Source: Eledone cirrhosa
Lineage: Eukaryota
Direction: 5' to 3'
DNA length: 64,000 bases
Assembly: GCA_964016885.1 (NCBI GenBank)
Contig: OZ024745.1
Coordinates: 90,768,001 to 90,832,000 of the forward strand
The position numbers and the translations under genes are program-made. Within the stretch, counting starts at the first letter, position 1, and every line of letters begins with the position of its first letter. A model generated the notes under the pieces. That model saw only the letters and a program-made list of their open reading frames with translations. It had not been told where the DNA came from and ran no database searches. Below, in pieces: positions 3,497 to 59,394 of the stretch.

Positions 3497-6075
3497 TAAC
3501 TTAAAAATATTAATAAATATAGACATTCATGTGATCAAATATGTATAATAAAATATATTTGATCACATGAATGTCTATATTTATTAATATTTTGAAGTAA
3601 TATTAATAACTCCAGAAAACCTCTTTGCTGAGTGCTTCTAATCTATTGTAAAACTTTATTCATTGATTAATCAATGAACCTTGTTAAACTTTTGGTCACA
3701 ATTGTTTCCCCAGCGAACAACAGCTCGAGGTGCGATCTATGTGTGGATCGACCTGACTCTGGATACACAGGTTCCTCCGGCACGTCTTTTGATTTCGGAG
3801 CATATCCTCTTTCTGGAGTTTCTGACCCTACAGGTCTATATTGTCCACCTTCATCCTCTTTGCGCGTCGTCGTGTCGGTCACTGGTTAGTGACGTCATCA
3901 TAATTCTGACCACTGGTAGCAACCTGCTGACCATCAGGGCGTGAGCTGTTACTCACCCACTGTAAGGTAGGCAAAATTACTGCTGTGGTTGCCAGCTCAC
4001 ACTCCCACACACAGATACGTTAGGTTAATAGCACCCTCCAAATAGGACCTAGGTAGGGCCAGCAACAATATCATAGATAGGATACCACCGGTACTTAAGA
4101 ATAAAACTAGGCTTAGCTTATGGGCCTCCACCAAGGAGGTAATTGACTGGTTCTCGCTATTAGATAGCAAGCAACTGGTAAATTTCATTCAATTGGACAT
4201 AGCGAATGATTACGCGTCCGTATCACCAGTAATCGTGAACAAGGCCCTCATGAGCGCATGGCTAAGTCCAACCTCACTAGAGAGGAAGCAAGCATCATAA
4301 TAGCAGCGAGAAAGATGCTAATTAGCTTCAACAATAAATTATGGGAGAGGAGAGACAGACCCGACAGTTTCGATATTACTATGGGGTCGAGTGTCTCTGC
4401 ACAGGAGACGGATCTGGTGGGAATATATCTCCTCCAAAGGCTAGCGGAGGAGATCCCAGGGATCGGCGGAGGAATATATAGAGACGACGCGTTATTTACC
4501 TTCCACTCCCTAAACCCCAGCTAGCTGGAGCGTATGAGGAAGTGTGTATCACATTTTTTTAAGCAACACGGCTTACCCGTGCTGATAAAGCCTAGCACTA
4601 AGATGGTGAATTTCCTTGATGTTACTCTGGAACTGAATACGGGCAAACAGCGACCATACCACAAGCCCAACGAGAACCTGCATTATGTGAACAGGCACTC
4701 GAACCACCCCAAGTCCATCATAGATGCCATAGTAAAAGGGGTATCCAAATGCGTATCCACCCTGTCGGCTAATGCAGACGTGTTTAACCAGCACGCTGAC
4801 TATTATAATGCGGCACTGCACAGGGCCAGTTACACAAAAGCCATAGTGTACACCCGCACAGGGAAGGGATTAGCGGCGGAGCACGCGGATATGAGGATAC
4901 CAATAGTACTTCCATAGGTAGACAGTGCAACCCGGAACTAACATCTAGGAATAGAAGTAGCAGTATAGATTACCGCAAGGACGCAAGACTGACGAAAGCA
5001 CATGCGGATGGCAGGCCACGCAGTACGCGCAGATGGAATCCTGGCACGGGCACAATACGCGACACGGACACTAGAACTAGGGACAGGCTGAAGACAGATA
5101 CGGACGTGAAACCAGGTAGAAGAAACACCCGGATCAGTAGCAATGAAATAGCCCCCGACAAGTAGAACCCCCAACGCACACGGTAGATATATAGATAGCG
5201 GCAACATAGGGGACGAAATAACAGGCAGACACAACCCGAGACGGACACCTGACCCAACAAACATTACCACTACTACTACTACACATAGACTATGGAATAG
5301 GACAAGGTCTAAGACCATTACATGGTTTAACGCGGCGTATTCAAAGCATGTATGCAGCAATGTACCAGGCCTCTTCTTCCGAGCATTGGACGAGTGCTTC
5401 CCGCCGTCTAGCAGGGACCACAGGATATTCAACCGCCTCACGGTGAAGTTCTCCTTCTCCACCGCACCTAACATGGCAGACTACATGGCCAAAACCAATG
5501 CGGTGAAGTTGGGGAAACTCGACCGTCAACAGCGGCGGGTACTGATGGTCCCGCGGGGCACGGAGGGCCCCTTGCAGACAAGGTTTCCAACTATACTCCG
5601 GTCCCCGTGGCGGCCGCCATGCCCACGGAAGACGCTGTAATCGAATGCTGGGCAGAACTGATTGATGGAGGGGAGCCCACCGCACCGACAGAACAACACC
5701 CAGAGAATCGGGAGAGTGCCGTAGTAGACCAAGGGCCCAGCATTGGAAATGAGCAACATAACGACCAAACATGCAACTGCAGGGCGGGCATACAATGCCC
5801 CCTGCAGGGAAGATCCCTAACAAAGGGCCTAGTATATAAATGTGTGGTTAACACGCACAACACCAAGCGCACCTACATCGGAGCAACATTCACAACCTTT
5901 AATATGAGGGTGTATAATCACACAAACTCTTTCAAGGACCAGAGCAAGAGACACTCCACTAGGATGGCAGACTTAATATGGGACTTGAAAGACAACAGCA
6001 CCCCTTATGATCTCAACTAGAATATCATTCAACATGCAAATGCATATTCGGCTGGAAATAGGAAGTGTAGGCTAT
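3497..6075 (+). mobile_element. Penelope-like element, Hydra-like clade (5' fold-back pLTR, 5'UTR, RT, C-terminal GIY-YIG), decayed and 3'-truncated
   Basis: 44-bp inverted arms (3499-3542/3555-3598) next to (TA)n; RT motifs FIQLDI, FDITMGS, IYRDD, VNFLDVTL; linker CNCRAGIQC (CxCx5C); GIY-YIG LVYKC...TYIGAT...R.YNH..SF. Stops and frameshifts present. Confidence 0.8.
4017..6075 (+). pseudogene. PLE reverse transcriptase + GIY-YIG endonuclease (fragmented)
   Basis: ORFs 4258-4524, 4534-4917, 5386-5640 and 5607-6020 carry consecutive RT palm, thumb and endonuclease motifs. Confidence 0.85.
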
Positions 6076-6439
6076 AACTTAGCTTTTCTAAATAATTTCT
6101 TCATACGTGAAGTCCAAATTCACAAAATATGACTAACTGCTGATTTATTCTCAAAATGAACTCTTTTTTCGGAAACCAAGAAAAAATATGGAATCGCTTT
6201 GTTCCTTGAATTAACGGTCTTGATTTAAGTGAACAACTTATGAATGCATTACATAAATCATGCAGACTTTGGTATTTACTTATGCAATAAGTAAATACCA
6301 AAGTCTTAAACAATCTTCCTACCAGAATATAACAGTTTGTTTATCTTACTGCAACAACAGTGCCTTGTGATCACTATAGCCAATCTCTTCATTAAGATAC
6401 TAGCATAGTTCTTTTGTAGTTAAAACTGTCGTTCTGAAA

Positions 6440-8757
6440 ATGCATTCATTTGTTGTTTTGTTGGAGTTTTGTGTAATCATGAAGCGGACTGTCATCAATA
6501 AAGAAAGTGGAGCCAAAGGACAGAAAAGGCAGAAGTTGCAGAAAGAAAAAGCCGTGAAATCTAACCAAGTTATCCTGTCTTTTTTTACTCAACCTAACAC
6601 GTCCTGTTCTCCTGCTGATGAGCGTCCAAGCTGCGAGGCTTCATCAAGTTCATCTTCCTCAGAAGGCATCGATGAGTCGCAGCATTGTGTCTTAAAACCC
6701 GAGCCCTGTAAATCAGATGAAACTGACCCCGTAATTCTTTACGTCATTCAACAGCACAACATTGGACTTCTTCAGTTTGACAAAGTAACCGGACGACCAC
6801 TTGTACCTGATTCATTAGAGAGTGCAGTTAGTGCGACTTGGTTGGAAGTACTTCCAGAATTCCGATGGTTGTGCAACGGCCAGGGTGAAGAAATCCATAC
6901 AAAAAGTCGGCATTCTGCTTTTGCTGCCTTCTTTTCTCCGGTTCGAGTTTCAAATCCGCACTTGAACAAGAAAATGGCTTCAGCAACTGGAAGAAGCTAG
7001 AGAAAATGGAGTTGCCTGAGAACAGTCTTCATCATCGGTGCTGTTTCACTCAGTGGAAAGAGATGGAACGCAGTTTGACAGAAGAGCAAGGAATTATCGA
7101 TGCACAGCTTCAATCATTAATAACAACCGAGAAGCAACGTTGGCGCGATAGCCTCTCTCGACTTCTACAATGCATCAAGTTTCTTGCGACCCATAATCTT
7201 GCATTAAGGGGACATCGCGAATTGCTCCAGCAAAACAAAACGACCAACGCTGGGAACTTCATCGGTTTATTGAAGTTGCTGTCATGTTTTGATCCTGTGA
7301 CAAAGGAGTTTCTAAGTAATGCGGAAACTCATCCAGGTTCCACGTCGTACCTCTCCCTCATAATCCAAAATGAATTCATTCATCTACTTGCTCTCAACGT
7401 CAAGAAGAATGTTCTTTGACGCGTAAAAAATGCTCGTCATTATGCACTGATGGTGGACTCATCTCCTGATCAAGCTCATCGAGACCAGCTGTCACAAGTG
7501 GTGAGGTATGTCGATGTTGATTTCGACAAAAGGACCGTTCGCATCCGAGAGTCCTTTCTGGGGTTCACCCTACTGGAAGAGAAGGATGCAGCTAGTATTG
7601 TAGAACTTATTTTGAAAGAATTGAAAGATGATGGCCTTGCGCTGAGTGATTGCAAGGCACTATGTTACGACAACGCTGCGGTTATGGCCGGACACACCAG
7701 TGGGGTTCAACAACGCATAATGAATTTGAACGAAAAGGCGATATTTGTTAACTGTGACAACCATTCACTTAACCTCGTTGGTTTGACCACAGCGAAGAGT
7801 AGCTTCAAAGTTATGTCATTTCAACGTCATCAAGTGATTGTTTGCGTTCTTTTGGTGATTGTTGGGAAAAGTTAAAGCAAGCAATCCCTTTCGTTCTGAA
7901 ATCTCCATCGGACACTAGGTGGACCGCAAGAGCAGAAGCTGTAAAGCATCTTGCAAACTTTCTGAATGAAATCCTCGAGCTTCTGCAAAAGTTGGTAGAG
8001 GATAATGAGGAGAGATCCGACACACGAAGTGATGCAGAACATCTTTTAAGTCAAATGCTTGTCTTCCTCTTCTTCGTGTTGCTTGGATTTTGGAATAGGA
8101 TTCTGGCTCGAATCGATCGGGTTCAAAAACGCCTTCAAGATCCAACAATGAACTTCCGGGATGCCTCTGATGACATCAAAGCCCTCCAGCAGTATTTCGG
8201 GATAATGGAAGTACTATTGCCCAGTAATCACTTAATAAAGGCCTTGAGTTAAGTTCACGCTGAAACATTGACATTAGCAAACGTCGCGGAAGGCCAAGAC
8301 GGCAGCTTTCAGATAATTCTGAAGATGAATTACTATCACCAGCCAGTGAAGTAAAAACAGTCATGCAAACTGTTCTCCTTCGAATTCAATCAGAAATGCA
8401 GCTACGATTCGCCCGTCTCAACGATATTGACGAGAGGTTTGGCTTCCTCCTCGATGTCTGCTCTCTGTGCTATCCACCTTTTCCAGACGACCTCGCGCTT
8501 CGATCAAAGTGCTCTTCATTAGCTGATCACTACAATGTTGACATTGACGGCAAGGAATTTCTTGACTGTCAGGCTTTGTTGTCAACCCACGCTAATATTT
8601 CAGTCCCAAGACAAGAACACCTCCTGAATTTTATTGTTCAATATGGAGACAACAGTGTATTTCCGAATTTGCGCATCAGTCTACAGATACTGCTAACAAT
8701 GGCCGTTTCCGTCGCAAGCTGTGAGAGATCCTTCAGCAAGCTCAACCTCATCCCTAG
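6440..8757 (+). pseudogene. hAT transposase pseudogene (ZMYM1/DUF4371-like, hATC dimerisation domain)
   Basis: LALRGH, GNFIGLL, SYLS..IQNE, D.S.D..H..QLS.V.RYV, CYDNAAVMAG..SGVQ, C.NH.LNL, SDTRW, and C-terminal FPNL...VSVASCERSFSKL across frameshifted ORFs; no TIRs seen. Confidence 0.9.
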
Positions 8758-59035: not shown

Positions 59036-59193
59036 TTGTATTTCGGCCTGTTCAGCCCCCTGCCGCTATGAAGGTATTTAACTATGTACACGACATCCCA
59101 AATCACTGACCACTCCCCATGACAGACAAGAAAAACAACAAACTTTTAGGATTTTTTCTTAAATTTTTTTGCTTTGACTGCATGCCTATATAT

Positions 59194-59394
59194 GGACTGA
59201 ACCCCTTGATAAGTTCAGCTAGATTCCTGCCGTTCTAATACTGGTGGCTTAGTTCAGATCTAGCTGTCGAAACAGCTGGAGCTCAGCCGTCGGGGTCCTG
59301 ACTCTTTTCCGATTACCCACTCTAATACCCTAAGTATTGAGTACTCTGGTGTGTTATGGTCCACCTGGTATCTTACCACACCCTCTTTGTTACA
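59194..59394 (+). mobile_element. pLTR remnant with complete but mutated hammerhead
   Basis: ACCCC-TTGATAA-GTTCAGCTAGAT...ATCTAGCTGTC-GAAACAGCTG-GAGCT-CAGCCGT-C-GGGGT (59201-59296); ACTC..TTGAGTAC at 59319-59344; ends at (TA)n. Confidence 0.7.

Follow-up and report, generated by a model that had tools for sequence, protein, structure and literature searches.

A duplicated, bulged hairpin in register with the copy ends of Hydra-clade Penelope-like elements in Eledone cirrhosa

RESULTS

Analysis of a 64,000-nt stretch of the Eledone cirrhosa genome (assembly GCA_964016885.1, contig OZ024745.1, positions 90,768,001 to 90,832,000, forward strand; here called the window) revealed a small bulged hairpin in elements of the Hydra clade of Penelope-like elements (PLEs). 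The hairpin occurs twice between the hammerhead and the ATG of these elements, and genomic copies end a few bases 5' of either the first (SL1) or the second (SL2) hairpin. On the basis of this geometry and of work on another PLE (PMC11167929), each hairpin probably serves as a docking site for the reverse transcriptase (RT) on the RNA and determines where internal synthesis starts. A preliminary description of the window had presented the hairpin as a 4-bp stem (ACTC and GAGT) with a loop of 8 to 24 nt, located near the 3' ends of otherwise unrelated TA-embedded fold-back elements, and had suggested, among other possibilities, that it might position the RT template; this suggestion is the best reading of the hairpin and fits the register of the copy ends described below.

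Definition and covariation of the hairpin

The stem and loop as originally worded were not found above the level of shuffled sequences. Bare ACTC-N-GAGT occurred 12 times in the window (shuffle mean, 12.4) and 134 times (shuffles, 102 to 126) in an unbiased sample of the same genome consisting of 80 evenly placed 10-kb stretches (800 kb). The significance of the hairpin comes from its position together with its upper stem, a 2-nt bulge, and a trailing RC. The true motif, 16 to 27 nt long, consists of RCTC, an upper stem opening with Y..R, a 2-nt 3' bulge (T followed by T, C, or A), GAGY, and then mostly RCT. The pattern RCTC-[Y..stem..R]-TN-GAGY-RC gave 51 matches in the 800 kb and 1, 2, and 6 matches in shuffles. 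Bulge size matters, as bulges of 0, 1, 3, and 4 nt gave 5, 3, 2, and 1 matches and only the 2-nt bulge was enriched. A relaxed pattern yielded 125 matches in 32 clusters, about 20 of which were judged genuine by eye. Among 77 fold-backs that were anchored on one side by (TA)n and collected without using the motif, ACTC was the most enriched of the 256 four-letter hairpins in the tails (27 of 77, compared to 2.45% of 2,000 controls). The strict pattern was present in 22 of 51 tailed TA-anchored fold-backs, i.e., in about half.

For a blind pairing test, 42 hairpins were chosen by anchors that ignore the upper stem: 10 SL2 hairpins from our own families and 32 hairpins from a metagenome set of 78 loci retrieved with a Hydra-type alignment. 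The first upper pair was formed in 41 of the 42 hairpins when a 2-nt bulge was assumed and in none with a bulge of 0 or 1 (permutation, 0/5,000). A covariance alignment of 42 rows, all from outside the window, combined the 32 metagenome hairpins with 10 of our own SL1 hairpins. Family-level hairpins were picked programmatically, and the SL1 entries were filtered for pairing and excluded from the blind test. In this alignment, 96.4% of the cells pair; the closing pair is G-C in 34 rows and A-U in 7, and the first upper pair is C-G in 25 and U-A in 17. The covariation score was reached by 0 of 500 shuffles, which ignore the kinship of the rows. At the second upper pair, G-U was seen seven times and A-C not once. 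The stem thus covaries strongly, and a covariance model was built from this alignment.

The conserved GAGY-RCT was considered as a palindrome for hairpin-hairpin pairing; this idea was rejected because a mismatching A follows the C in 30 of 32 metagenome hairpins. Rfam reported no family at the gathering score at the hairpin sites and no ribozyme-like core was present there. Across the window, Rfam returned just simple-repeat microRNA noise and tRNA-like pieces, and it missed the hammerheads too.

Duplication of the hairpin in Hydra-type leaders

In about 10 coding families from this genome (designated here by letters, with loci designated by L numbers) and in metagenome contigs, the hairpin occurs twice between the hammerhead and the ATG. 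In longer copies a hairpin stands just upstream of the ATG. SL2 lies 12 to 42 nt before the first ATG, and the spacing between SL1 and SL2 ranges from 55 to 101 nt across families. Two-hairpin leaders run into Hydra-type open reading frames (ORFs) in families A, B, C, D, E, F, G, H, and J and in L282. Two genome-wide two-hairpin patterns gave 737 and 1,021 matches, compared to 1 and 3 in reversed controls; another pattern scan (14,604 matches) was dominated by the GAGCTC palindrome of the family A hammerhead and was not used as evidence. At least two hairpins were present in 17 of 22 5' hammerhead segments of the metagenome loci, and one or none in 37 of 41 3' segments.

A canonical hammerhead was recognized in 63 segments of the metagenome loci. 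Upstream of SL1, both core halves of the hammerhead were found in families B, F, G, and J and the 3' half alone in families A, D2, and H. Motif placement and covariation support the earlier proposal that the hairpin is a conserved cis element of Hydra-clade pseudo-long terminal repeats (pLTRs), located downstream of the hammerhead.

A second PLE in the window (28643 to 31640, minus strand), with a Neptune-type CX4CxxC linker and a canonical hammerhead, served as a negative control; its 3' end lacks the motif. The motif was present in none of the four complete 3' ends of this element, and the five model matches in 25 such loci fall outside the tail.

Register of copy ends with the two hairpins

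Copy ends in the 800 kb were mapped with 10 family references. Among 117 TA-joined ends, 103 fell within positions -22 to +2 of a hairpin start (51 at SL1 and 52 at SL2). The modal position was -6 to -8, and 88 of the 117 ends lay in -11 to -4, that is, in 16 of about 260 positions; these offsets are blurred by TA microhomology. Of the remaining 14 ends, 13 were placed farther upstream, on the family I reference, and most of these coincide with the terminus of a SINE-like piece. Ends not joined at TA lay near a hairpin in 27 of 129 cases, or in 26 of 45 without family I. In the metagenome loci, 13 of 17 ends were within -12 to +2 of the next hairpin. Positions -6 and -5 relative to the hairpin were A or T in 58 and 56 of 60 hairpins, respectively.

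Copies ending before SL1 are tail-less, and copies ending before SL2 are tailed. SL2 is absent from tailed copies and yet in register with their end. Because ends are in register with both hairpins, the hairpin noticed previously can be identified as SL1, which lies within the tail; the tail itself stops just before an uncopied SL2, so that the PLE tail is the SL1-to-SL2 interval. The earlier interpretation of the hairpin as a signal for the end lying 25 to 60 nt downstream has to be abandoned, since that end is in register with the uncopied SL2; the end in register with SL1 is the tail-less one, on the inverted arm.

Among inverted pairs of TA-joined ends from the same family, 15 of 16 unbiased cases consisted of an SL1 end and an SL2 end, where half would be expected (P = 0.0003). 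The same combination was found in 27 of 27 pattern-selected loci, two of which are mutual duplicates, and in the single case in the window. Arm lengths were compared in 46 fold-backs. The tail-less arm was longer in six, which indicates that these did not arise from one cDNA snapping back from the tailed end.

Identity of the fold-back elements

Of the seven families in the window, the four searched for coding partners (A, B, C, and K) all link to Hydra-type ORFs. Since copies of these families were found whose tails continue into such ORFs, the respective window copies are 5'-truncated insertions. TA-embedded fold-backs are therefore mostly 5'-truncated Hydra insertions, and for the most part not the independent non-autonomous families mobilized in trans that had been envisaged. 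Family A, the source of two window copies, forms tandem units of about 3.5 kb with ORFs of 717 to 719 amino acids.

RT cores of different families are 36 to 64% identical, apart from two subfamily pairs with 76% and 85%, and 29 to 46% identical to the metagenome RTs. The CxCx5C linker and YIG were found in families A, C, and D and in the window ORF, CxxC in A, C, and D, and CxH in A only. SDKT and LRWR are present in family A (L344), SDRT and MRWH in family D (L031), and SDKT in family C. No CCHH motif was evident by eye in the translated endonuclease (EN) domains, and Pfam assigned no family to the six PLE pieces among 12 proteins. Judged from translations, the motifs of the window coding element fit the Hydra clade as defined by Craig et al. 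(2021; PMC8557442). According to that study, the features shared with Hydra-clade PLEs are DKT, RW[KR], the CxCx5C linker, a C-terminal GIY-YIG, and a canonical hammerhead, as well as insertion at (TA)n, inverted 5'-truncated copies, and a tail at one end.

Family I, the only family that looks genuinely non-coding, contains both hairpins and no ORF of more than 80 amino acids in three loci, so true non-autonomous use of the hairpin pair probably exists. Its unit (L261, L244, and L254 to L259) is a tandem non-coding repeat of about 1.3 kb with SL1, SL2, and a SINE 3' piece upstream, and the family is a candidate for a true non-autonomous Hydra partner.

Members in the window

Analysis of the window with the covariance model ranked nine sites first (E values of 4e-6 to 0.034; next match, 0.98). 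All ten stretches reported earlier were confirmed at their positions, and these nine, including the variant at 53015, are real members; they sort into seven families, in line with the earlier estimate of about seven. The tenth stretch, 9366 to 9373, taken before for a half site, is pLTR sequence upstream of SL1 that is unconserved in other copies and missed by the model. It lies in a tail-less family D copy (9130 to 9405, plus strand) that ends 6 nt before SL1. The earlier list was also incomplete, as it missed a tenth member at 52278 to 52323 (plus strand, family H) that has a long loop and matches the model weakly.

The typical layout comprises (TA)n, an inverted arm, and a direct arm in which part of a hammerhead is often present; the hairpin follows after a few bases, and a further 25 to 85 nt separate it from a microsatellite. 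The member at 3609 to 3633 (plus strand, family C) follows a (TA)n run at 3475 to 3498, an inverted tail-less arm at 3489 to 3542, and a direct arm at 3555 to 3608; its tail ends about 6 nt before the SL2 of the coding relative L345. This copy does not lead into the 5' untranslated region of the coding PLE, as had been assumed. Its tail is directly followed by an inverted and 5'-truncated family D pLTR (3700 to 3960, minus strand), which belongs to the same family as the copy at 9130 to 9405. The window ORF (4120 to 6020, plus strand) is a 5'-truncated, broken Hydra-type RT-EN frame with YRDD, a CxCx5C linker, and YIG, whose own leader is absent. Its RT core shares 76% identity with that of family D, and the element is part of a very large family, for which a first look gave 31,914 candidates.

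Family K is represented at 10883 to 10898 (minus strand), where a short-loop hairpin has a hammerhead 3' half upstream, and at 34184 to 34202 (plus strand), next to a fold-back with a hammerhead remnant (34063 to 34172). Family A is represented at 27456 to 27479 (plus strand), where the tail ends 6 nt before the SL2 of coding copies and the adjacent fold-back (27337 to 27448) has a hammerhead 3' half and a left arm ending about 8 nt before SL1. Its second copy, at 59319 to 59342 (plus strand), is preceded by a degenerate hammerhead with a long stem II, as read from the sequence (59202 to 59295, plus strand). The family B hairpin at 28534 to 28553 (plus strand) belongs to a fold-back at 28281 to 28528 whose 120-nt loop extends the inverted tail-less arm; the ends lie at -4 (SL1) and -9 (SL2).

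The remaining three members each represent a family of their own: 27181 to 27212 (minus strand; arms 27225 to 27261 and 27281 to 27317), the G-C closing variant at 53015 to 53035 (plus strand; arms 52775 to 52855 and 52923 to 53003), and 53920 to 53939 (plus strand; arms 53811 to 53852 and 53870 to 53911). The terminal microsatellite noted near the hairpin belongs to the typical layout. It is missing at 53920, where no TA run lies within 120 nt of the hairpin, and after 27181 a TA run is first reached at a distance of 84 nt.

Further observations on hairpins, tails, and neighboring repeats

Family K showed no intact SL2 among 100 of 223 matches listed, only a jump from SL2 to SL1 (L339 and L340). 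At L339:1430-1560 and in L340, the tail is duplicated by a jump from the first SL2 bases into SL1, a pattern that points to recombination between hairpins or to template switching. At L342:3930-5001 and in L343 (about 14.235 to 14.254 Mb), there is a satellite whose 58-bp units all contain a family A SL1. It begins at a family A tail and extends over at least 18 kb, and may possibly reflect reiterative copying at the hairpin. Chimeras of different Hydra families were found on the minus strand of L034 near 6510, at L049:2990-3110, and in the window at 3634 to 3710; one is joined inside the hairpin and the others tail to pLTR. A 50-nt insertion between two TA runs (window 3085 to 3135, minus strand) consists of the family D SL1-SL2 spacer only.

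An extra unbulged hairpin of the ACTC/GAGT type lies between the hammerhead and SL1 in one metagenome family (L166, L168, L170, L174, and L233). A variant in the Hydra-1_Amil consensus was rejected as SL1 and not counted, as comparison with L166 and L233 identified it as this different hairpin upstream of SL1. A variant with a 1-nt bulge occurs in another hammerhead-bearing family (L088:9540-9582, minus strand; six copies among the loci examined). Abundant TA-anchored fold-back families with motif-less tails are located in the window at 18303 to 18845 and 26850 to 26874 and in L061, L129, and L054. No partners of these families were found among the loci examined, and they possibly belong to other PLE clades.

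The family D hammerhead (window 9200 to 9360; L047:3230-3330, reverse) has an apparent insertion of about 70 nt in stem II, and stem II of family A is also long. A tRNA-like SINE ending at (TA)n forms fold-back arms at 9445 to 10019 and 3160 to 3350. Decayed pieces of hAT transposase, LINE-type RT, and Tc1-type transposase (6404 to 8797, 12913 to 16095, 36425 to 39503, and 61015 to 61877) are ordinary.

DISCUSSION

We regard the hairpin as a genuine cis element that occurs throughout the clade, within a retroelement family that is already known, and, judged from its sequence context, as an RT-recognition-type hairpin with unusual geometry. A likely mechanism starts with the GIY-YIG endonuclease, which would cut a (TA)n target. 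Protein bound to a hairpin would then prime about 4 to 8 nt upstream, at an A/U-rich spot, from the nicked (TA)n. A start at SL1 would give a tail-less end, and a start at SL2 would copy SL1 and give a tail. Both hairpins would be used in one event, plausibly by a dimer, and both target ends would be extended, with one cDNA each. The two cDNAs, which have the same polarity, would be joined through their 3' ends, in many cases where a palindrome such as hammerhead stem II is naturally present, and the product would be a fold-back tailed on one side. Most insertions would be short because truncation occurs early. We propose only tentatively, and with somewhat more doubt than confidence, this programmed double priming, in which a dimer grips both hairpins of one RNA and starts cDNA before SL1 and before SL2 at opposite ends of the target.

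Several observations weigh against this interpretation. In 45 of 60 hairpins the antisense strand gives the more stable fold, and the count of enclosed wobble oppositions favors the sense strand by just 7 to 2. Of 10 families, 4 retain SL1 and 6 retain SL2 in the minimum-free-energy fold of the whole SL1-SL2 segment. The three lower-stem pairs carry no covariation because they are invariant, and the conserved RCT after the stem has no explanation. The link to Hydra-type ORFs extends to four of the window families. The arm-length test is weak: the tailed arm was longer in three fold-backs (two of them poorly defined), 21 have short loops, 8 are unclear, and 8 are without a detected repeat. In addition, the PAc RNA and tail of a Poseidon element, as printed in PMC11167929, do not contain the RCTC/GAGY motif, and the start is described there as lying inside a stem-loop; the analogy to PAc drawn below is therefore functional only.

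Alternatively, the hairpins might act in DNA, with EN recognizing the cDNA or an extruded duplex and cutting about 6 nt upstream, so that a longer intermediate is resolved into tailed and tail-less ends. PMC8557442 attributes the tail to EN-mediated resolution, and the EN of Drosophila virilis Penelope needed the tail to cut plasmids, as recounted in PMC11167929; the TA-like positions -6/-5 and the better folding of the antisense strand point the same way. This explanation is nevertheless unlikely. It requires cDNA extending past SL2 in nearly all insertions, the second upper pair shows G-U but not A-C, and in the one reconstituted PLE both tail ends were RT start sites on RNA (PMC11167929). 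Strict one-plus-one pairing would likewise result if SL2 set the start of a single cDNA that snaps back, with SL1 in the cDNA stopping return synthesis and marking the second joint. Loops shorter than 24 nt in 21 of 38 measurable fold-backs and the three longer tailed arms agree with such an origin, but it appears decidedly unlikely, given that the tail-less arm reaches further upstream than the tailed arm in six fold-backs and that tail-less ends also terminate ORF-bearing direct copies (L170 and L209) and the solo copy at 9130 to 9405.

The register of ends would be equally expected if transcripts were cut just 5' of the hairpins and then used in ordinary target-primed reverse transcription from the 3' end. 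RNA-seq read ends coincide with start sites in the Poseidon element (PMC11167929), but internal initiation on uncut RNA was shown for the same element, and with neither a ribozyme-like core nor a gathering-level Rfam match at the sites we rate such 3' processing as highly improbable. The idea of a promoter or translation element, or of shared descent with an incidental link to the ends, is already disfavored and hardly credible: SL2 stands close to the first ATG and all families come from one clade, but the bulge geometry covaries between families with unalignable flanks and divergent RT cores, and ends follow both hairpins despite their variable spacing.

Within PLEs, the closest counterpart of the hairpin pair and its register with the copy ends is PAc, a Poseidon element (Frangieh et al., 2024; PMC11167929). 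According to that report, two internal RT start sites bound the PAc tail, the reaction requires RNA 3' of the start region at 111 to 118 (to +172), and the protein extends both target strands and is predicted to be dimeric; a binding motif within the 172 nt is put forward there as a hypothesis only. In both systems, the two ends are found 3' of the hammerhead and close to the ORF start, the tail is optional, the target is AT-rich, and a stem-loop is implicated. PAc differs in that it belongs to another clade and represents one family with one AC-rich stem-loop, inside which initiation occurs. Its description, as far as consulted, contains no duplicated motif, covariation analysis, or pairing rule, and its tail measures 30 to 40 nt, in contrast to the wider hairpin spacing found here.

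The nearest functional analogue of the hairpin is the bulged RNA hairpin near the 3' end of copies of the eel LINE UnaL2 and its SINE, which is required for mobilization and common to the LINE and its non-autonomous partner (PMC1636434). The UnaL2 hairpin is single, upstream of the start site, and copied, whereas the hairpin described here is downstream of the end that it marks, left out of that end, and duplicated.

In L1 twin priming, an inverted part arises from two primings on the same RNA, the second of which is internal and unprogrammed. Here, both ends occupy fixed sites in register with the hairpins, and they point outward, toward the target.

The preliminary description knew of no earlier account of the hairpin. 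In the literature searched (subscription papers and Repbase left out), no account of the motif was found, nor of its duplication or of the pairing rule; a related idea, that of a stem-loop with two starts, is present in PMC11167929. The terms "hairpin" and "stem-loop" have 0 occurrences in the main text of PMC8557442 and no matches in the accessible text of PMC4209133 and of a 2026 retrozyme preprint. By eye, SL1 is clean in two of the six new Hydra consensi of PMC8557442 (coral and sea cucumber) and has one mismatch in a third (copepod), and the other three end before SL1; no remark on it was found in the text consulted.

PLEs are the closest retroelement relatives of telomerase. A duplicated, covarying hairpin in fixed register with both ends defines exact mutants to test, and it provides a marker for Hydra-clade ends. 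A large class of TA-embedded fold-back repeats is reclassified as truncated Hydra insertions, with on the order of 100,000 hairpin copies in the genome if the 800-kb sample is representative. How PLEs choose their RNA and start site, and how tails and inverted repeats originate, was named as a next task in PMC8557442, and the hairpin pair would account for the puzzling one-sided tails of Hydra-type PLEs. Double priming, if true, would explain at the same time why PLEs have a tail, why it is found at just one end, and why inverted repeats occur, and the hairpin would be a portable 20-nt signal that places the RT start on any RNA.

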